From Massalongia carnosa (Eukaryota): DNA of 64,000 nt. Location of the stretch: assembly GCA_965645245.1 (NCBI GenBank), contig OZ287069.1:744001-808000 (forward strand). The letters are read 5' to 3'. The position numbers and the translations under genes were made by a program. Positions 18,087 to 51,000 of this stretch are shown in pieces. The notes beneath the pieces were generated by a model that was given only the letters and a program-made list of their open reading frames with translations, had not been told where the DNA came from and did not search any database. Each line of letters opens with the position of its first letter. Position 1 is the stretch's first letter.

Positions 18087-20609
18087 TCAGGCGCTCATAC
18101 TCTCATACCCAGTACCGTTTGATCCGTCAGAAAGCCTTCGTTTAGCGTTGTCCATTGCCAATTTCTGCGCTGGAGCTATGGGAACTGTCTCTTGCATTTG
18201 ATATTCGAGCTTGGTATCCTCTGATGCCAATGCGGCCCCCCATTTGTTCAACCTTGACTTGATATAGCGTAGACAAGCTTCAAACACTCCGCTCTTCGGA
18301 TCCTTCTCAAGCGTCGATAGCAATCGGCATGCAGCGGCAAATCCTAGTAAGCTCACATCATTTATGTTGATGTCAACAGAAGTAAGGAGGTCCACCGCAT
18401 TAGCCATAGCTACTAGCTCGCTATTTAATGAACCTAGGGTAGCAGCGCACTGAACAGCAAATCTGACGTCCTTCCGGATACGTTCGGGGATGGATGAGTC
18501 GAAAAATACAGACGCGGTTGCCCGAGACGAAACGCTGCTAGTGCTAGATAATGGGAAGCGAGATAGGTCTTGCGAAAGTTTAGCGATATTAGCCTCACGA
18601 TCAGTCTCCAAGAATATAGCCTTTGCAGCTAAAGCTCGAGTGTATGCGCTAAATGCAGGAGGTGCGACTTGAAGAGCAAACTCCAAGTTCCTTTCGTCGC
18701 AGGGACCGAGCATTGCACCATGCTGGTACCAGTCGAGCAGTGCCTGGTGAAGAGAGAGACTTGATGCCCATGCTGCCAGGGCATCCAGAGGAGACCGGAT
18801 GGCATAATCCTCTACGATAATATCAGTTCCAAGATCTTCGCCTTTGGTATCCTCACGAGTCGGTCTATTCCAGGCTAATTGTAGGCGCGCTGCACAAGGA
18901 GATCAGTAAAAAGCTCATCAGAATCAAGCTGCAGGAGAGCGGTTAGATGCTGCAGTAAAGACTCTCTGTCGTCAGGCAAGAAGGAAACTATAGGCTTTGA
19001 CAGCCGATGCATTTCCTGTGCCTGCAACCACTGATGACGTGCAAGTCGAGCAGCGGCTTTGTGCAGCATGCACCAGATACTCTAACCTGATTTTGATGCC
19101 TCCCATAGTAGAATTCGAATGTGTAATGCCTTCAACATGAGCCGGGTTGGTGTGCTTGGTAGAGTTCCAGAAGCAAAGATAGTTAGCACAAGTCTGCTCT
19201 TGCTAACTTCAGAATCACCTCCGGTAAGTTGGGCATCAATAGCGATATCCCAGGCCCTAACTCTTGCAACCTCGTCCTCCTCGGTCTGATTCAATAGCCA
19301 TGCAAAACTCGACCAGCCGATGAACTGTCTCCCAATGTACCTCATAGCCTCCAGGTGCAGTGCTATAAGTTCAGGAAACATTCTGTGCCTTGGAAACCCA
19401 ACTGTTTGGATCGCTGTCAGCCATGCTTTTCGACGAACCTCGATTGGTGACGCTAATGATGGAGCTGCTGCAAGCATACTGTCTTTGCAACTTGTGGATG
19501 ATTTTGGCTTGGAACTGAAAAGGTACAGAAAAATTGCATATGCCAGTAACGAAAATACTAGGAGAATCTTTACCAAAAATGTGAAGGGAATTCCAGGAGT
19601 AAAAATGTTCCCCTTTAAACTCCTAATGGCATTTGCCACATTCAAAGTCGGCGGAGTAGATAGCGCAAAAAGACCTCGACCATCTGGATGGTCTCCATTT
19701 CCCCCTCTTTCACCAAAACCTTCCATAACTAGTAGTCCGGCTAAAGATCCTAGCATGAGCCTACCAAAAAGCTTACTGCGCCCAACCCCATGTTCTTTTG
19801 GGGATATTGAATCAGTCGAGTTAATATGTAACTGACCGTTATTATAAAGGTCTCCAGCGTAATGCTCATGGGGAATAGACGCTCGAAGAGCTTTCATGGC
19901 ATCGGGGACGCGAATCATTCCTTCGAGGTGAGTGGCAGCACGTGGAGAGTTGATTGTTGTAAGCAGGGTGTTTTCTGCTTGCTTTGATGATACTTCATCT
20001 GTTCGATCTTGCAACACCTTTCTTATAGCTCTTCCCGCTTCTCTGATGTTTTTCGAGAGCGGCGTACAACTTCGAAGATTGGCATTCTCCTCCTCTAAAC
20101 AAAGCGTTGCGGGTTTCAAGATATTGAATGTACTCAATAGCTTTTGTCATAATGGTGGCCTTATTGAGTTTAAAGGCGACCGATAGCCCTCCGAGATTAG
20201 CAGGCTCCTGGTAGTCACTGCGTAGACTTGGTACGCTCTCTCGCAGTGCAGCAATTTTCTCGTTTAAGTTCGTGCGATAACGCCGCTCGATCATAGTATG
20301 GCTTCGATTCGTTGTGGGTGGCTCTGTTGAATAGCGAATCTCCTTAGTAGATTCTTGATTTGTTCCAAGTGACAACTTTCGCTTCTTAGATGGTCCTTGA
20401 ACCTCGACAAACTCTGGCGGTAAGCGGTCTGAGATGCTTCTGGCCCTGCTAGTTAAAACAGAACCTTGCTTCGTGTATGTCTTACAAGGGGAATGTAATG
20501 ACTGCTGAGGGGCGAGCGCCTCAGCTGCTCCGTCCCATTCTTCGTTGGAAACCGGGCTTTCTCCGAACTTTGAGGCGAGAGCTGCTCCTAAGGGAACTAT
20601 CTGCTCCAT
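18087..20609 (-). pseudogene. srbA: SREBP (SrbA/Sre1-like) bHLH transcription factor, disrupted as assembled
   Basis: bHLH HTMIERRYRTNLNEKIAALRESVPSLR with the SREBP-specific Tyr, two transmembrane segments and a DUF2014-type C-terminus (AWDIAIDAQLTGGD..SKSRLVLT). Split by a +1 frameshift (~20100), an in-frame TAG (19082-19084) and a -1 frameshift (~18877). Confidence 0.8.
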
Positions 20610-20778
20610 TATCCAAAAGATGTGCGAATCAAAGCGTCAAAGACCAGATACGCACATCAATTGCGTGCGAGGAATAATTGAGATGGTTCTATGTCACGTG
20701 AGGCCCCTGAGTCAAAGTAAATTAAGAATCACCCTCTGAAAATTCTTTCCTCATCCACTTCTTCTCACTCGGCCTCAT

Positions 20779-20924
20779 CCATCTCACTGACTCGTCGTCG
20801 ACCCCACGTTGTCTCGGTGCCCCTACCTCGCTGTCAGTGCTTGCTGCTTTTCCCATCTCACTGACTCGTCGTCGACCTCACGTTGTCCTCGGTGCCCCTA
20901 CCTCGCTGTCGGTGCTTTTTCCCA
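20779..20924 (+). repeat. Tandem duplication (period 74 bp, two copies) in the retroelement 5' leader
   Basis: ccatctcactgactcgtcgtcgacc.cacgttgtc..ggtgcccctacctcgctgtc.gtgctt at 20779 and 20853; ends immediately before the gag ATG. Confidence 0.95.
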
Positions 20925-21938
20925 ATGACGAACACCCGTTCCCAAAGCACCCCGATGGACGACATAGTCCCCGACTCCCAGGAGATTGTCGGATTGACGC
21001 AGGCCCAGTCCAATCAAATCTTCGCCCTACAAAAGAAGAAAGCCGAGGCAGAAGCGAAGGCGGCCGAGGCTGAGGCCAGAATTGCCGAGTCCAAGGCATT
21101 GGTCGCCGAGAAGGAGGTGGAAAAAATGCAGCTAGAAATCGACTGCATGCGCCGAGAATCTGACGCCCGAATAGCGGCCGTCATTCCTGCTGGCAAGCCG
21201 AGTCGTGTCGTCGGCGATGACGACGAGGACCTAGGTGAGATCCCTCTCGAAGTAAGAAGTATAGCACCCCGTTTCGCGGGCCTACCACAGGACGAGATCA
21301 TCAAGATCTTTTCAAATAAATTCAAAGCCATCAACCTCTCCCGCCTCCGACACATGCACGGCATGCAATACGAGTCCTACAAGGATCAGGACCGCATCGG
21401 CATCGAAGACGGCGCCTTGAGGTTGAGAAAGGCATCCGGGACCTACAAAGATTTCGGAAAGACAGTTCATGACGTCTGGACCGAGAGCTTCATCAACTAC
21501 ACCTCGATCATGGTCAGTCTTTTCGGGAAATCGAGTCAACAGCTTCACGCCACCATGTCGGCATTCCACGGAAAAATCCTCACGCTGGCCAAGGTGTACG
21601 AGTGGCAGGAAGCAGTCCTCCCCCTCGCCATCGAAACCCACACTCACATCATCGCGTCTCAGCCATCCGACGCATCCCAATGGAAAATGCCCGACGAATT
21701 CCAAGCTCGATTCTGCACCCCCCTCACAGTCCTACGCCGTCGCCGCTCACGATCCCCGCCGTCCCGGCGACCGACCCCGAGAGGAGACAGGGCCGATAGG
21801 GCCGAGAAGGCAGCGGGGGAAATCTGCGACAAGTACAACAGCGGCACCTGCACCTGGCCGTCGTGCTACCGACAGCACAAATGTAAATCGTGCGGCGCGG
21901 CTGGGCATGGCCAGAAGACATGCCCAACGAAGAAATAG
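20925..21938 (+). CDS. Gag-like protein of the YR retrotransposon
   Basis: ATG at 20925, N-terminal coiled coil (KKKAEAEAKAAEAEARIAE), C-terminal zinc fingers CDKYNSGTCTWPSCYRQH and CKSCGAAGHGQKTC, ends TAG. Confidence 0.85.
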   Translation: MTNTRSQSTPMDDIVPDSQEIVGLTQAQSNQIFALQKKKAEAEAKAAEAEARIAESKALVAEKEVEKMQLEIDCMRRESDARIAAVIPAGKPSRVVGDDDEDLGEIPLEVRSIAPRFAGLPQDEIIKIFSNKFKAINLSRLRHMHGMQYESYKDQDRIGIEDGALRLRKASGTYKDFGKTVHDVWTESFINYTSIMVSLFGKSSQQLHATMSAFHGKILTLAKVYEWQEAVLPLAIETHTHIIASQPSDASQWKMPDEFQARFCTPLTVLRRRRSRSPPSRRPTPRGDRADRAEKAAGEICDKYNSGTCTWPSCYRQHKCKSCGAAGHGQKTCPTKK

Positions 21939-21983
21939 GGGGTTGGTGCAGGAGGCAGTAGAATAGCTTCAATAGCTGAATTC

Positions 21984-23691
21984 ATGACGTCCCATCCCTG
22001 CTTACCTGCACCAATCAGACCAAATACAATCCCTTCGTTTCAACTCGTAGACGCATCTCGTCAGCGTTTGAAAGACAGCCCATCTCCCCTCGTACCGTCC
22101 GCATGGGCAACTCTACTTCAAGAGTATCCGGGCCCCCTCCGAGTCCATCTGCCCATGATCCTTCGTTTCGGAGTACAAATCGGATACGAAGGCCCCACAG
22201 ACATCCTTCGGATCGAAAAAAATCTGACATCAGCGAATGAGGACCCGGAAACGATCGAGAATAAGCTCCAAGAGGACCTCAGGAAGGGCCGAGTCAGACG
22301 AATAGCCGCCCCGAGTCAGCCATTTGTGGCCTCCCCCCTCGGCTTGGTCCCGAAACATGACGGAGGATGGCGACGCATTCATCATCTGTCTCATCCCAAT
22401 CAAACATCAGTCAACGACAACATTCCAGAAGAGGCATCCAAATTACAATACGCCAGACTCGACGACATTATTCAATTGATTCTGTCAGCGGGCAAAGGTG
22501 CTGTCATAGTGAAAAGAGACGTCAAAGACGCCTTTCGAAACGTTCCCGTCGCACCTCATCATCAATGGCTTCTGGGTTTCGGATGGAATGACGAATTCTA
22601 CACCGAGACATGCCTTTCGTTCGGACTGTCGACGGCCCCGTTCATCTTCAATCTTTTTGCGGAAGGCTTTCATTGGATTTTGGAATCCTTTCTACAATGG
22701 AGATTACATCACTATCTAGACGACTTCGTTGCAATTTTCCCATCCGAGACATCGTCAGAACGATTGCACCAAGAAACAAAAGCCTACAACATTCTCACCG
22801 ACATTCTTGGCATCCCGAGAAACGACTCAAAAGACGCCGAGGGAACGACAGCGACAGTCTTCGGACTCGAGGTCGACACCATCAACAGTCTTATTCGTCT
22901 GCCAGCGGACAAGCTGGAAAAAGCGAGAATCATCACTACAAAGGCACTAAACGAGACGACAATCAGCCTCGGCGACATGCAGTCAATAGCGGGCTTCCTA
23001 AGCTTCTGCGCACAGGCAGTCAAATTGGGCCGAGTCTTCTTACGATTATTCTGGAATTTTATAGCCTCATTTCCCTCGGGCAGTCATCGTCGGGTCAAAA
23101 GAAGAATTCCCACATGGGTCAGACAGGATCTCATCTGGTGGAACAAACTTCTAGTGGACTTCAACGGTATTGTCTTCTTCGAGACGTCAACACGAGACAC
23201 GATCAAGGTGCATACGGATGCATGCCTCACGGGTCTCGGAGGCTATTTTCAACAAGACAACGAGCTCGTGAATCAAAAAAAAAAACGCATGTAGGGCCCG
23301 AGTCCTAGTCCTCAATCAGGAAGGATCACCGAGCATAAACGTCCGAGAAGTCGAAGCTATCCTTCTAATCCTTCAGAAATGGGCGCCGACATGGCGACAT
23401 CGACAGATCCTTGTCTTTACCGACAGCAACACAGCATACACAGGATTCACGAATCTAACCCTCAAGGGACCGGCCAACGCGCCTCTACGAGAAATACTGT
23501 CCATAGCTGCAAAGTGGGACATCGTACTACGTTGTCAATGGATCAGTGGCACTTCCAATGGACTAGCAGATGCCCTGTCACGTTTTGATGATGAAAGATT
23601 GGCTAACTTTTGCCCTCATTGGCAGAACCCATACAATTCGATGAACCTCCCTCCACCTACCTATCCTCCACACCAGGGTCAGCCCTGGTAA
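21984..23691 (+). CDS. Reverse transcriptase-RNase H (Pol), with a one-base frame break in an A11 run at 23275-23285
   Basis: SPLGLVPKHDGGWRRIHHLS, KRDVKDAFR, LSFGLSTAP, HYLDDF, then RNase H VHTDAC. It continues in the +1 frame as INVREVEAI..VFTDSN..WISGTSNGLADALSR to TAA 23689-23691. Confidence 0.9.
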
Positions 23692-24773
23692 AACGTCTCG
23701 TCTGGCACGGACACTCGGCGGACACGAGAAAAGGGTACGGGACGGCGATCGACTCATACGAGGCATTCTGCGCGACGACGGGACGCACGTCGTGGCCTGC
23801 AACAACCGAGTCCCTCGAGGAATGGCTAGCCGGTCGACTATACGGGGGCGGCACACCCAAGCAGGGAAAGATAAAACCAGAGACGGCAGCGAGCTACCTC
23901 GCCGGCCTCAGATCATACCATGTAGACCGAGGATACGGCCTCACCCCATTCGAGGGGCCGAGACTTCAATTGATGCTGAAAGGGGGAAAAAGGATCTTTT
24001 CTCAGACAAAAAGAAGACGCCTACCCATTTCAAAAGAATTACTGACAAAAATCACCAGTATTCCCGCTCATTCGGCCGAAGACCTCAACATCGACGCGAC
24101 ATTCAAAGTTGCATGGGCAGGGTTCCTCAGACTCGGGGAAATCACCTACACTGTCGCCGATCGTAAGAAGACATCTTTTCAGAGATTGAAACCTACACGA
24201 GGTGACATCTCATTCGCCGAGAACGATCAATACGCGACATTACGTCTCAAAAGAAGCAAAACAGACACAAATCACTCAGGAGTTCAGATAGTGCTGGCAG
24301 CGACCAATGAGAGCACTTGCCCCGTGACAGCACTACGGCGTCTTTTCAGAAATGATCCTCAGCCATCTACATCCCCGCTTTTTCGTCTCGGCACCGCATT
24401 CACCAGAGCCTCCGTCATAGCATCCCTGAAAAAGAGACTGATAGCCGTCGGCATCAACGACTCGGCATACTCGGGACACAGCTTCAGAAAAGGAGCAGCA
24501 CAACACGCCGCCGACCACGGGATGCTGGATGAGAGTATTCAGAGACTCGGAAGATGGTCATCAAACGCGTTTCAGCTATACTTTCAGACGTCCCAGGCCT
24601 CACTATTCAATTTGAACCTCAGTTTTCAAAAAGGCATCCCTCTAGCAGTCCCACGTGCTGTCGTCGCCGAGACGAATCCTACAAACTCCTACCCCTACTC
24701 AATTGGGCATTCCATTGGGCGTACAGGTCAACCAGGGCATCGATCCGGAGCGCCGCCGGGCACCTCCATCTAG
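23610..24773 (+). CDS. Tyrosine recombinase (phage-integrase family) of the retroelement
   Basis: Catalytic motifs GFLRLGE (R), LKRSKTD (K), SGHSFRKGAA (HxxR), LGRW and FQLY (Y). No ATG upstream of the N-terminal domain; the ORF-track start is TTG. Confidence 0.92.
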   Translation: MPSLAEPIQFDEPPSTYLSSTPGSALVKRLVWHGHSADTRKGYGTAIDSYEAFCATTGRTSWPATTESLEEWLAGRLYGGGTPKQGKIKPETAASYLAGLRSYHVDRGYGLTPFEGPRLQLMLKGGKRIFSQTKRRRLPISKELLTKITSIPAHSAEDLNIDATFKVAWAGFLRLGEITYTVADRKKTSFQRLKPTRGDISFAENDQYATLRLKRSKTDTNHSGVQIVLAATNESTCPVTALRRLFRNDPQPSTSPLFRLGTAFTRASVIASLKKRLIAVGINDSAYSGHSFRKGAAQHAADHGMLDESIQRLGRWSSNAFQLYFQTSQASLFNLNLSFQKGIPLAVPRAVVAETNPTNSYPYSIGHSIGRTGQPGHRSGAPPGTSI

Positions 24774-24931
24774 ATCATCGCCGTCGGGCACTGCCGTCGG
24801 GCATCATCTATCGGATCGTTGAGCGTCAGCAGACGCCTCGGGCCTAGAAGATGAGGTTCTCACCTCAGCACCGACCCCGAGTCACGTGCCTAGGCCTGCC
24901 CGGGCTGACCTGTGTCGTTCCCATGCCCAAT
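24702..24931 (+). other. Predicted multibranched secondary structure at the retroelement 3' end
   Basis: Nested complementary segments read by hand: 24702-24710/24923-24931, 24717-24739/24897-24920, 24741-24747/24812-24818, 24823-24827/24832-24836, 24841-24847/24890-24896, 24852-24857/24862-24867, 24868-24871/24886-24889. Confidence 0.7.
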
Positions 24932-25306
24932 CAAATTCAAGCATTCAAATCAATTCATCCAATTAAAAGCCCCCCCAGCGCAAGCGAAGGTAACGGCACC
25001 GATAAGGGTCATAGAACGTAGCGTTATTGACTAATGCAGGAGACACTCTTCATTACACCCCATCTTTAATATTCTTCATATACCTCTAGTAGTCGAAAGA
25101 AATGTCCTTGAAACTGCGAGGTTCATACTTCAGCAATTTACCCTTCTTTCAAATCCCACTCTGATAAAGTATCTGTAGATATATGTTGACTCTCATAATC
25201 CGCAGCAGGTGATCCAAGGCCCAACATTAAATCGAGTTACGTACCTCAAATTAGATGGTTTTTAGGTGTAGAGATGTATCGAAACATCAACCTCGACATT
25301 CCTGGG

Positions 25307-39682: not shown

Positions 39683-39908
39683 TTGGGCTGTCTACGGCAT
39701 CTGCTGGGGTTCGGGTATGCTTGGAGTTTCTGAACAGAGCTAAGAATAGCAAATCAACTCCCAAATGAAACGGATGACAATTTATGTTTAAGGCAGAATG
39801 AGGATTGAAGCGTAGCGGTGATTGTTCCTAGACCAAACCCCTTGGTTCGATGACCATTAAGACATCCCCATAGTGGACGTTTCTAGAAGGTGACGTAGCA
39901 AGGTCTTA

Positions 39909-41850
39909 ATCGTGCTAGACCACTTTCGGAATGCAGAGAGCACCCCTTAGTGCTTACCGGCTCAAAGACGCTACCGGCTCAAAGACGCATTTTCAACATT
40001 TTACACCTCAACTTCGACACGTCAACAATCAACAACATAATGGTCAATTCATATTCAGCTATCGAGGATCGAATTGACAGTGCAATTGACGCGTTACATG
40101 ATGGTTTGTATACTAATTGTCGAGCTGCAGCTATAGCTTTTGACGTTGCCCCTCGTACGGTTCAAAAACGATGGAATGGAGGCAACTCCAAAAGCAGTCG
40201 ACCTAGTACCAACAAAGCTCTGACGGATGAGCAAGAACAAGCTGTTCGTGACTACATCGAGCGATTGGACAAGGCCAACATGTGTGCGCGACCCAAATTG
40301 ATCGTGGGGGCTGCAAATTATCTGATTCGTTTTGAGAATCGTACTCTTGGTCATCAGTGGCTGAAGCGATTTCTTGATCGAAATCCCGAGCTTCATGTAC
40401 GAAAACAGAAGCCTCTCGCAGTCGATCGAAAAAATAGTCACGACGTTAACGATATGGTTGAATATTTCAGCAAATTAGAAAGGGTGATGAGGGAAAAGGG
40501 AATAACGGAGCTGGATGTATGGAATATGGACGAAACAGGCTTTCGAATTGGATGCGGACGAGCTCAAATAGTAATCACCTTGGACCCACGAAAGCCTCTT
40601 CGTATGACTGATCCGGATAATCGTGACTACATTACTTCTGTAGAGTGTATCAGCTCGGCCGGTGACGTTATTCCACCATTACTTATTCTTTCGGGTATTC
40701 ATATTCTTCATAAATGGTGTCAACACAACGATCTCGACGGAGAGACGTTGATTGGGACCAGCGAGACCGGCTATTCAAATGACGATTTAGCCATGGATTG
40801 GCTTCGTCATTTCATCGAGCATACACGGACTAAAAGACGTGGAGCTTGGCTACTTCTAGTCATCGACGGGTTTGGGTCTCATTCAACCATTCCGTTTTTG
40901 AAGCTGGCCACTGAAAATCAGATCGTTCTATTTCGTCTTCCAGCACATTCTACTCATTTGACTCAGCCGTTAGATGTAGGTGTTTTTCAGCCGTACAAAC
41001 ACTATCATGCTGAGGCCATTGATCATGCGATACGAATGGGAGACACGGAATTTGGAAAATTGGAATTTTTAGCCGCATTCCAGGAATTTCGCAACAAGAC
41101 ATTCAAATCATCTACTATTCGTCATGCATTCAGGACCACCGGCATCGTCCCATTCAATCCGAACATGGTACTCGACGTCATTCGTCAGAAGCAAGCTGCA
41201 GCCTTGGAAATTAGGAATGAACCCCGCACCCCGAGCCCCCTACCTCTTCAATTTCATGAGCGCACCCCTCGAGGCCCCGAATCAATCAGAAAATTCGGTC
41301 ACAAATTGCAAAGGGCATTGACCGCGGCCGGGCCGATCGGTGGATGGATGGATAAAAAAACAGTGGACGGTTTTCAGAAATTTATTAGGGCCTCCATCAC
41401 CTCCGCCAACACCCTAGATTTGACTACGCGGGACCTTCAGCAAGTGCAAAAAGCCACCACATCGCGTAAAAGTCGGGCCGCTCTCGGGGGTCAGGTAGCT
41501 GCAAAGGGTGGAGTCATAAAAGTCAGTCAATGTAGAGAATTATGTTCAATTCGTCAAAAAAAAGAGGAAGAAAAGGCTAGACGAAAGGAACAAAGGGAGG
41601 CTAATAAGGGGAAAAAGGCCTCATCAACCCAGTTAGACAACGTCCGATTTTTACTAGGGCAGGGCCTGTTAGTAGAACAGACTGAGCAGTAGATTTTAAA
41701 CCCGAAATGAAGCTATTTGGACGTCTTTTCATGAAGGTCTGATTTTTTTAATGTTGAGGTGTTGAAAAATGCGTCTTTGAGCCGGTAGCGTCTTTGAGCC
41801 GGTAAGCACTAAGGGGTGCTCTCTGCATTCCGAAAGTGGTCTAGCACGAT
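39909..41850 (+). mobile_element. pogo/Fot1-family DNA transposon, apparently intact
   Basis: 85-bp perfect terminal inverted repeats (39909-39993 / 41766-41850), TA on both sides (39907-39908, 41851-41852), single transposase ORF. Confidence 0.96.
40040..41692 (+). CDS. pogo/Fot1 DDE transposase (HTH + CENP-B-type HTH + DDE_1)
   Basis: WNMDETG, IDGFGSH and LTQPLDVG catalytic motifs; uninterrupted ORF from ATG 40040. Confidence 0.95.
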   Translation: MVNSYSAIEDRIDSAIDALHDGLYTNCRAAAIAFDVAPRTVQKRWNGGNSKSSRPSTNKALTDEQEQAVRDYIERLDKANMCARPKLIVGAANYLIRFENRTLGHQWLKRFLDRNPELHVRKQKPLAVDRKNSHDVNDMVEYFSKLERVMREKGITELDVWNMDETGFRIGCGRAQIVITLDPRKPLRMTDPDNRDYITSVECISSAGDVIPPLLILSGIHILHKWCQHNDLDGETLIGTSETGYSNDDLAMDWLRHFIEHTRTKRRGAWLLLVIDGFGSHSTIPFLKLATENQIVLFRLPAHSTHLTQPLDVGVFQPYKHYHAEAIDHAIRMGDTEFGKLEFLAAFQEFRNKTFKSSTIRHAFRTTGIVPFNPNMVLDVIRQKQAAALEIRNEPRTPSPLPLQFHERTPRGPESIRKFGHKLQRALTAAGPIGGWMDKKTVDGFQKFIRASITSANTLDLTTRDLQQVQKATTSRKSRAALGGQVAAKGGVIKVSQCRELCSIRQKKEEEKARRKEQREANKGKKASSTQLDNVRFLLGQGLLVEQTEQ

Positions 41851-41936
41851 TACGGGAACCTTATACCTTAGGACGACGCGAGAGAAAGCAAAACAAAACG
41901 TTAAAGCGTATGGCTCAAAATAGAGTACATAAGTTA

Positions 41937-48088: not shown

Positions 48089-51000
48089 ATCTAATATAAC
48101 CTCCAGCGTTCGTCCGGGCGCCTGGTGTTCCCGGAGCATTGACGTGATGTCTAGCGGGTATGGAGTGGGGCACGTGAAAAACTGCTGGGGGGTGGTGGGC
48201 ATGAAGATTGTAATTTTGGAAGTTTGCGCCTCCCTTCGCTTCAAGGACTGCCGTACGATGGGCAGTCTGACTGACATTTGGATGACATGCATTTGTTTTG
48301 ATTATGTTCGTTTAGATGTTTGATGAGTGGAAACGGTGGATACGATGTACGGAGTTATACATGTGAATTGGATGGGTAGATGGACATCAACCTCAATCGT
48401 CGGGACGTCCTCCGCACAGGTACTTGTACTCGTGCCATTCTCGATACGTTATCAGCATGCAGTCTGGACCACGATTGACATGCCACGATGATGCACGCAG
48501 TTGTTCCTTCGGCCTGACATGAGGCGTCCGTGAAGAGTACATACCGAGTTCTCGTCGCTGATGTTGAGTTTCGTCACTCCGTTGTTGATCTATCGACTCT
48601 GCCCCTGCTCGCACCGCACAACACGCAGAGTAACTCGATAGGCTATGCAAGCGACCACAGAGGATAACATGGCAGATAGTTATGGGAGGTCTAGGCTAGC
48701 TAACTGAGGGATATATCTAATAGGGGTTCGTGGGTCATGTGACCCCTAATCGCCTGACAGTTCTATCATTCATTTGCTACGAATGCCTCCCTATCATTGT
48801 GCCTCATCTTCATTTCTCAAGTTCAGGAGGTACCGAGTGGCCAGATGACAGAATAGCTGAAAGAATAGCTTAATGGATAAGCGGCTAGAGAGTAGGTAGG
48901 AATACGTGGGTGTTTTCATGATTATTTCCTTTCGCCTACTACCCTTTATAGGCCAAGTATGAGCCTTTTTCTGCCCATCGTCCAAACATTGTCTTAAGCT
49001 ACAAGTAGCACTCTTTCACTCTCACAATACTTCAGCAAGCGCTTATGCCTCGAGGTCTATATTTTCAACAGAGCATATACTGCTAGCTAGAGACCCATGC
49101 ATATAAGCTCCATTTTTTCTATTATTCAGCAATTCATTGCTGGGCAAATAAAAAGCTATTGTATATTAACACGAAAGATCTTCAGGCCAAAAAGAATCAA
49201 ACCCTCTGGAAGAAATCACCCTCAGATGCATAAATTTATATTGGCACATGCTGATGGGACTCAGAACTGTGGCGCTGTTTACCTATGGATGGCTTTTTCT
49301 AAGCTGGGTAAGCCACAAGAGGAGAGGAAAAGGGCAGCAAAATCTGCTTTTCAGAGAGAACGTATGATGCTGACTGAAGGAAAGTCTCTAGATATCGCTC
49401 TCGCTGGTGAATTGGCACCTCCCTTCCAGGCTAATCAAATCAGGCTTGATATCAGATTTAGAGTTACTAACAATAACGATCTGATGCTATCAAAAGAAGA
49501 TATCAAACTGTATTTGATTAGCCTGGGAGGAAGGTGCCAGTTCACCAGCGAGAGAGATAGTACACGCGGACGCGGTACTGATTACATGATTGCATAACAG
49601 CATTTAAGTTTCAACGACGCATTAAGTATTCCGTCATGGTCCAAGGACGGCTGGGTTTTTTTCTCATGCAGTCTTTGGTGGCATAATATTTGTGGTGGCT
49701 AGAATATCCGCATCGACAAATAGAGCGGTAGCGAGGACGGCGGTCATGGTAAAAGGAAGGCTGGAGATCAATTGCATTCTCACGGAACAGATAGGCCTTC
49801 TTCTTAATTGGGCAGAAGGCTGCTGACGTTTCACAAGCAAGGGGTTGTTCCAGGACTGCAACGATAGAACAATAGGCAAAATACCAGACAACTTGGGGAA
49901 TAAGGGAAGAGGTTTAACTAACACGATCAGAGTATGACGATTACAAATACTCCCTTATAACCTCAGGTACCAAGCGTCTTTAATCACACGTACGTCAAGC
50001 TTGTTTATAATCATATCCCAAAGCTCGTAGACTCTATGGCTGGCTAAGAAATTTATTGGCTATTTCTGGGACCGCCGCTGGAAGAATTTAGGAGACCAGA
50101 CATAAATGGGACGCTCTTGCTCCACGGCTTTTGTTCTGTGTTCCAGCGCTGCAAACAAGGCATTGAGATTGTCGAGAGGAAAGCAAGGGACCGTAGGTCT
50201 GTAAATCCATCCTGGAAGAAATGTAACATCAGCGAAAGATCAGCTGGTCGAGTGTGACTTCTGTGATCAACTACATGTACCATTGGATGTTTCACTTTTG
50301 TACAACCTGGTTGGAAGCCGTCCACTCTGGACTATCAGAAAAATAGGCCAGGAGGCGAATAAAGAATGAACATGAACAGCAGACTATGCCACATCGAATC
50401 ATCCTCAGAAATAACAATATGGAATCCTCAGCCGTGCATCTACTTCGCACGAGTTAAGACGTTTTCTAATTTTTTGTTGCAAGCGTATACAGTTTATATG
50501 GCGTATTTTACTTTCTTGTGTAGATCATATTGTGTTCGGCTTTGCCCTTCGTTCTTCTCCTTTTCATATGCACCTCCAGAGTCGTTAGGAGTAGCACAAA
50601 GACTGCTTTGATAGCACTAACATCCTGTGATAAGACGCCCCGGAGAGACAGCGTTTCTGGCCTATTCTATCTACCAGAGCAGACAAGAGAACCAAGACGA
50701 CCCTCTAAAACGAAAACGAATGCTAAGACTTTGCATGAAGGCTACAGTCTTCTTTTTTTCTATTTATACTTCGCAGGGTCTGCTTGTTAGTCCTCGAGTA
50801 AATGAATGAATGGATCTACTACCCTCGGTTCTCCGTTATATGTATTTTTATTCCACTTGATTCTTTGTCTAAGGATATAGGTAAACTACTTTATAGCTCC
50901 TCATCCAATTAACCACTTAGCTACTGGTTCAGCCATCCAGCCACTTTAGACACCTACTTAGCTATTCATTCAGCCATTCAGTATCATTCCTACACTGCTA

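Follow-up and report, generated by a model that had tools for sequence, protein, structure and literature searches.

In retroviruses of the avian sarcoma/leukosis type, the env mRNA uses a splice donor that lies a few codons inside gag, and Env starts at the gag AUG. For retrotransposons that carry a tyrosine recombinase (YR), the expression route of the recombinase is unsettled, and the literature, as far as its text was available, notes a YR frame that overlaps the frame of reverse transcriptase (RT) and RNase H or is shifted against it. Among these elements, the Ngaro group stands apart from the DIRS1-like and PAT-like groups by having no methyltransferase domain, according to the available parts of two papers (PMC13465315, PMC3783388). 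The survey of fungal Ngaro elements describes a YR open reading frame (ORF) that is either in the same frame or frameshifted and that may overlap, and the available portion of its text contains 0 occurrences of ‘splic’ or ‘intron’ (PMC3783388). For DIRS-1 of Dictyostelium, the accessible part of one study reports that the element’s proteins act in trans and, by means of an artificial marker intron, that spliced RNA is reverse-transcribed (PMC7192593). In human L1, internal splice sites give shortened copies that can be inserted, the so-called spliced integrated retrotransposed elements, as stated in the accessible part of the corresponding paper (PMC5860796). In the literature searched, parts of which were available in full text, no DIRS-order element is described as reaching its recombinase through natural splicing; a mention is possible in the original Ngaro paper of Goodwin and Poulter or in the Poulter reviews of 2005 and 2015. 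Here, we analyzed a stretch of 64,000 nucleotides from Massalongia carnosa (contig OZ287069.1 of GenBank assembly GCA_965645245.1, positions 744,001 to 808,000 of the forward strand; hereafter called the window), which carries a single copy of an Ngaro-like retrotransposon on its plus strand with the order gag, RT-RNase H, YR. Comparison with related elements makes it likely that the recombinase is produced as a fusion with the N-terminal part of Gag (GagN), by partial splicing of the element RNA.

The gag ORF (20925..21938, plus strand, as are all parts of the element given below) comprises 337 codons and has a CCHC-like C-terminus. The YR frame is open from 23607 to 24773 (388 codons) and, in line with an earlier note on this DNA that was made from the letters alone, has no ATG ahead of its N-terminal domain. 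Its earliest Met is residue 123 (23973), which lies past the entire N-terminal domain of the Cre-like fold, so that the frame is unusable from an ATG of its own. Judged by the structure model, a start at this residue would delete the N-terminal domain, which counts for splicing. The positions that the earlier note gave for the splice signals are exact: the TAA that closes the YR frame upstream lies at 23604-23606, GCTAAC at 23602-23607, CAG at 23623-23625 and the donor GT at 21235. The 5′ splice site GTGAGA (21235..21240) follows an exon end that reads ...CCTAG, while the TAA stop is part of the branch-point consensus CTAAC (23603..23607, branch A at 23606). A spacer of 15 bases without any AG separates GCTAAC from the CAG of the 3′ splice site (23623..23625). 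The window sequence thus has the attributes of a fungal-type intron, with a GTRAGN donor, CTRAY 5-35 nt ahead of YAG and an AG-free spacer. Both sites are in phase 1, as had been proposed: base 21234 in the gag frame (ATG at 20925) and base 23625 in the YR frame are both codon position 1. Joining the coding part of exon 1 (20925..21234, which is GagN, 103 codons plus one base) to that of exon 2 (23626..24773, the recombinase, with its stop at 24771-24773) indeed gives an uninterrupted frame of 1458 nt, i.e., 485 codons and one terminal stop. The predicted intron of 2391 nt (21235..23625) spans the core and the stop of gag, RT and almost the whole of RNase H. The junction of the predicted fusion reads VGDDDEDL-E-PIQFDEPP, with the letters PIQFDEPPSTYL after the E, and its junction peptide is DEDLEPIQFDEPP. 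GagN is rich in E, A, K and R and carries the acidic patch DDDEDL at its end; the coiled coil that was earlier assigned to it is a reading from composition only.

According to the proposed mechanism, full-length RNA would be translated into Gag and, past the in-frame gag stop, into Gag-RT-RNase H. In a fraction of this RNA, the host spliceosome would join the 21235 donor to the 23625 acceptor, removing 2391 nt, and the resulting subgenomic mRNA would be translated from the gag ATG into a protein of 485 residues, in which the first 103 residues of Gag are joined in phase with the recombinase. Having no start codon of its own, the recombinase would borrow that of gag. We infer the splicing in the host, its partial nature and a role of GagN beyond its start codon; GagN might bring the recombinase to Gag assemblies or to the cDNA complex. 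Between the gag ATG and the acceptor, only two GTRAG sites occur, at 21235 (phase 1) and 21252 (phase 0). The latter (GTAAGA, 21252-21257, 17 nt past the first) was rejected as a donor: worked out by hand, its joint to the acceptor leads into the unconserved tail of the RNase H frame and to a stop after about 22 codons. A short intron starting from a nearby upstream donor within RNase H was rejected as well, as no GTRAG is present there and the conserved ADALSR motif would be deleted.

Relatives were gathered in two ways. A protein search with the YR frame gave 339 relatives, and metagenome contigs, scanned with an 18-sequence alignment of these relatives, yielded 116 confirmed stretches, from which 80 loci with 32-54% identity were kept; the four window proteins were placed on these loci by tblastn. 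The named relatives of the recombinase come from Agaricomycetes, namely Collybiopsis confluens and Panaeolus cyanescens. In 55 of 57 loci, RT is in frame with RNase H. The same is true of gag and RT in 25 out of 28 relatives, the two being separated by a stop (TAG, TAA or TGA). The shared frame with an intervening stop suggests that Gag-Pol may be made by conserved stop-codon readthrough, and in the window the gag stop (TAG, 21936-21938) is likewise in frame with RT. The recombinase, on the other hand, takes all three positions relative to RNase H: it lies in the -1 frame in 54 out of 68 relatives, in the same frame behind a stop in ten and in the +1 frame in four.

The N-terminus of the recombinase is covered by 78 sequences (77 loci and the window), of which 74 are testable, with the expected junction at least 45 nt from a contig end. 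In 69 of these 74, a CTRAY-N5-35-YAG whose G opens a YR codon occurs at most 16 nt from the aligned junction, compared to one and one of 74 in the other two phases. The phase-1 acceptor is missing from L008 (a deletion copy), L030 (frameshifted), L047, L065 and L069. Single-linkage clustering at 70% identity divides the 69 acceptor-bearing loci into 36 clusters, each of which has the motif. Their branch motifs are CTAAC (n = 43), CTAAT (n = 16), CTGAC (n = 9) and CTGAT (n = 1), and their acceptors are CAG (n = 49) or TAG (n = 20). In 36 loci, the spacer is 15 nt long, and in another 32 it measures 5-12 nt; it includes an AG in six. The acceptor motif tracks the start of the recombinase and not RNase H. 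It is kept whether YR is in the -1 frame, in the +1 frame or in frame with RNase H, and it is also present in L004, L009 and the L046 group, where RNase H and YR do not overlap or share a frame. In the families whose RNase H terminates far upstream or in frame (L004, L009, the L046 group, L002/L003 and the L031 group), a separate CTAAC-N5-12-YAG stands directly before the conserved YR start, and the CPYW motif of L009 is found about 200 nt upstream of the acceptor signal.

In the window, the conserved C-terminal motif of RNase H, LANFCPHWQ, ends at 23625, and the tail of that frame (23626-23688) is unconserved. The same holds for the relatives, in which the RNase H tail past the CAG is 22 to 667 nt long and unconserved: the mean pairwise identity of the RNase H frame is 0.90-1.00 at codons -2 and -1 and 0.10 at codon 0. 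For 38 loci, the point at which the YR frame opens served as the anchor. The residue ahead of N/D differs among them (A, T, S, also P and V), and yet its codon ends in CT in 37, with L080 as the exception. In L039 and L080, the Q codon is replaced by the stop TAG, while the YAG is retained. The variable residue over a constant CT codon end, the replacement of Q by a stop and the drop in RNase H conservation at the CAG together show that the protein alone does not explain the bases.

A comparable picture emerges at the donor side, where 24 sequences hold the N-terminal part of gag. A phase-1 GTRAG is located at most 75 nt from the place aligned to window codon 104 in 20 of the 24, compared to one in phase 0 and none in phase 2; counted over the whole of gag, the numbers are 21 for phase 1 and seven and one for the others. 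The relatives without a donor at the homologous place are L028 (which has one further upstream), L046, L048 and L076. The site is always found between the acidic patch and the conserved core of gag. The exon ends in AAG|, CAG|, CCG|, ACG|, CTG|, TAG|, ACC|, CTA| or TTA|, and the residues across the donor are GE, GK, RE or SK, amounting to a charge reversal in the protein, yet the bases are always N|GTRAG. Since the residues vary across the donor, the constraint acts on the bases. The predicted introns measure 2351-2691 nt in the window and the 18 relatives with both sites on one contig. The borrowed part of Gag ranges from 57 to 219 codons in the 14 relatives with the gag start on the contig, compared to 103 in the window. 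The earlier note had named conservation of donor, branch point, acceptor and phase among family members as a check on its idea, and the relatives bear it out strongly (69/74 and 20/24). As a side observation, the N-terminus of P0256, a gene model of Panaeolus cyanescens, has an acidic patch with a G behind it (DDDEG|IPAFV), just as at the donor site of the family.

Fusions of GagN and YR within one contiguous ORF were sought in an exhaustive, profile-free search of 1.84 billion protein representatives, in which proteins with a YR match starting about 60-130 residues in and an extension other than RNase H were taken as candidates. P0222 (324 aa, on an ENA contig of 2222 nt) is near-identical to its unspliced twin P0078 from ‘...G LLLFNPPAAFHAW’ onward. 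Ahead of this junction, P0078 reads VPPLA, which is the RNase H-overlap frame, and P0222 has 61 E/R-rich residues that end in ADEDDE. The tblastn match of P0222 starts at residues 62/63, which corresponds to the independently located acceptor G in L016 (189) and to one codon later in L014 (775 vs 772). P0287 (255 aa, on a Logan contig of 9926 nt) aligns to window Gag residues 52-103, with ...EDDL opposite ...DEDL (pair E 0.002), and continues without a gap into the window YR frame from YR residue 5 (158 residues at 48% identity, E 2e-51). In these public protein sequences, the two parts meet at the predicted place. A like arrangement, with no parent element in the set, is seen in P0291/P0323 (513 aa, contigs of 3850 and 28229 nt). 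The N-terminal extensions of P0291, P0261 and P0242 are free of RNase H and are not tied to a parent element, and they lend weak support. P0233 and P0256 (1252 and 1222 aa), both gene models of Panaeolus cyanescens, comprise gag, RT, RNase H and YR in one protein and count neither way. Both an origin as mRNA and an origin by insertion of spliced RNA would make the fusion ORFs products of the splice.

The identity of the recombinase follows from its alignment and its fold. A structure model from the alignment of 18 sequences has a mean predicted local distance difference test score (pLDDT) of 81, and each of its top 16 fold matches in the PDB is Cre or a derivative of it (about 330 aligned columns, best E 7.8e-11), in accordance with a Cre-like fold of two domains. 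PF00589 is matched by nine of the 18 aligned members and the N-terminal SAM-like domain by four, while R175, K218, H291, R294, W317 and Y325 of YR are invariant in the alignment. The window YR protein alone remains below the Pfam cut-off, and a sequence profile made from the YR alignment had 0 matches in the PDB at E 0.01.

Several points weigh against expression by splicing. The support for it stems from comparison and not from RNA, the element being found in none of the sequencing runs recorded as RNA, and an intron of 2.4 kb is far above the usual length in fungi. Of 69 relatives, 12 have an in-frame ATG in the stretch that begins where the YR frame opens and extends to 20 codons past the acceptor. 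In the largest group, the acceptor region also encodes the conserved RNase H motif (I/L)AN(L)CPHWQ, so that part of the base conservation there is protein-driven. As for the fusion ORFs, the junctions of P0222, P0287 and P0291 are known at the residue level, and the sequences could represent RNA, a processed copy or a chimera; moreover, the N-terminus of P0222 is identified as Gag by its composition. A search for longer proteins with the window GagN (103 aa) returned two matches, both of which are Gag, and a search with the GagN of L022 (81 aa) returned 20 matches, none of fusion length, with the six short ones that were read being Gag. Finally, the 21234/23626 joint is not seen in the contigs of four sequencing runs (X1, X2, X3 and X6), the kind of contig being unknown, which says nothing either way.

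The recombinase could alternatively be translated from unspliced RNA, by internal, non-AUG or re-initiation at an NTG two codons past the TAA (TTG at 23610 in the window; GTG, ATG, TTG or CTG in relatives). It is true that prokaryote-style gene callers start many relatives at this NTG column and that 12 of the 69 have the ATG near the YR start mentioned above, but 57 of 69 have none. The NTG is not independent evidence because it consists of the TG of a conserved Cys codon in the RNase H frame and its free third base. Initiation 2.7 kb inside a eukaryotic mRNA and behind many ATGs would need an internal ribosome entry site, for which nothing speaks, and it would leave both the gag donor and the fusion ORFs unexplained. 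We therefore regard this route as quite improbable.

A -1 ribosomal frameshift from RNase H into YR within their overlap of 85 nt (23607-23691), which would give a Gag-RT-RNase H-YR polyprotein, agrees with the predominance of the -1 arrangement (54/68) and with the overlap of the frames in most relatives. However, the RH/YR overlap of the window holds no canonical X_XXY_YYZ slippery heptamer, as already remarked in the earlier note, and only six of 55 overlaps hold one, at three non-homologous places; relatives thus as a rule have neither an ATG nor a frameshift site to start YR. The conservation of the RNase H frame breaks off abruptly at TGG CAG, a sequence that is not slippery. Relatives keep the splice signals even where YR is in the RNase H frame behind a stop (10/68) or in the +1 frame (4/68), arrangements in which a -1 shift could not work, and a frameshift does not account for the conserved phase-1 gag donor or for the fusion ORFs. 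This route, too, is highly unlikely. Least credible of all, and in our view close to negligible, is that the signals are functionless matches in a dead relic, brought about by protein conservation and chance: the RT/RNase H frame of the window copy is indeed broken and no second copy of its 5′-terminal segment (20600-20960) or of 24716-24960 exists in the window, but the enrichment is phase-specific (69 vs 1 and 1 for the acceptor, 20 vs 1 and 0 for the donor), residues vary at both sites while bases stay constant, the gag and YR frames of this copy are intact, and the cluster of YR proteins at ≥90% identity comprises 54 members, with megabase contigs among those listed.

If the recombinase is indeed made by splicing, the many ‘start-less’ YR ORFs of fungal genomes would be explained, and annotation would change, as the recombinase would be a two-exon gene with its first exon common with gag. 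The gag donor and the acceptor at the YR start offer a concrete mechanism that applies across 36 sequence clusters and all three frame arrangements. It also predicts a Gag-recombinase fusion protein, whose Gag part may matter for assembly. A more far-reaching version, to which we assign a rather low probability, holds that a retrovirus-like subgenomic splice is clade-wide in fungal Ngaro-like elements, that GagN is functional by tethering the recombinase to Gag assemblies, and that spliced RNA is at times copied and inserted, giving intron-less GagN::YR elements. Since spliced RNA retains both element ends, it could itself be copied and inserted; P0287 (9.9-kb contig) and P0291/P0323 (28-kb contig) are candidates for such intron-less elements. 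If this version is true, recombinase-only, Crypton-like elements could arise from a retrotransposon through the insertion of spliced copies.

The remaining parts of the element lie between and around the exons. The RT part of pol (21939..23294) contains YLDD and matches RVT_1 (PF00078, E 1.4e-12, 21939-23291). The RNase H part (23272..23691) matches RVT_3 at 23272-23688 with E 0.003, below the Pfam cut-off, and its DxxE...D...ADALSR-type motifs align with those of relatives. A run of 11 A (23275..23285) is four bases longer than in the contigs of the four runs, which have four fewer letters at 23275. The extra bases put RNase H out of frame with RT in the window copy and stem either from a true lengthening of the homopolymer or from a faulty assembly; gag, the YR frame and the two splice sites are undamaged. 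The earlier note had one transcript yield Gag, Gag-Pol and GagN-YR: comparison with relatives supports the splice part of this proposal, while Gag-Pol of this particular copy would be truncated due to the A run. The 5′ leader (20710..20924) has an approximate 5′ end, which was placed there because other copies (X2 and X6 contigs) diverge from it upstream of 20705/20710. The leader includes, directly ahead of the gag ATG, a 75-nt tandem duplication (20779-20842, 20853-20917), inside which (20779-20917) an X6 contig is without 1 and 17 letters. Contigs of X2 and X3 join 20854 to 24716 through 54 other letters. This joint represents either an A-to-B adjacency, as split direct repeats (A1 ... B1 A2 B2) would give, or a solo form, and the window has no second copy of either joint segment.

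Two further observations concern the form of the relatives. L005, L023 and L043 have a further gag/RT about 600-950 nt past the recombinase gene, which points to copies arranged head to tail or to contigs whose assembly ran around a circular or tandem form. L008:1449-3334 is a deletion derivative in which RT ends at about residue 315 and joins the recombinase at about residue 30, with RNase H and the acceptor gone. Elsewhere in the window, perfect inverted repeats of 87 nt (39907-39993 / 41766-41852) are 1772 nt apart and possibly are the ends of a small DNA transposon. Another inverted repeat of 70 nt (49393-49462 / 49490-49559) is 83% complementary, with its arms 27 nt apart.

Compared to the described systems, the element is an Ngaro-like tyrosine-recombinase retrotransposon of the order DIRS. 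RNase H leads directly into YR, whose frame closes at 24773, and Pfam finds no protease, DDE integrase or methyltransferase domain in the four ORFs of the element; the missing methyltransferase and the order gag, RT-RNase H, YR correspond to the Ngaro pattern within the DIRS order. As far as the available parts of the descriptions go, the element shares with the Ngaro group this gene order, the absence of these three domains and a YR that is often frameshifted against RT-RNase H (PMC3783388, PMC13465315), and the putative A...B adjacency in its other copies would fit the split direct repeats of Ngaro. Unlike in those descriptions, the recombinase of the window would be reached via a conserved 2.4-kb intron, as a GagN fusion (PMC3783388, PMC13465315). 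DIRS-1 has in common with it that both are YR retrotransposons, yet the splicing reported there, in the part of the study at hand, concerns an engineered reporter intron and not a route to the recombinase, and the ORF order and the termini (inverted repeats and ICR) differ (PMC7192593). Insertion of spliced RNA as in L1 is a possible explanation for the GagN::YR ORFs on the 9.9-kb and 28-kb contigs (PMC5860796). In L1, splicing is a defect according to the portion of the work consulted, whereas the window element would use it as the normal route to an essential protein (PMC5860796). By analogy, the closest counterpart appears to be the retroviral env mRNA that reuses the gag AUG. In both cases, one primary transcript would be partially spliced from a gag donor to an acceptor at the end of pol, and the start codon of gag would be borrowed, which, if true, adds a new parallel between these elements and retroviruses in the partial splicing of genomic RNA. 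Unlike in the retroviral case, the downstream gene of the window element is a recombinase, the borrowed part of Gag is long and the branch point is of the fungal CTRAY type.

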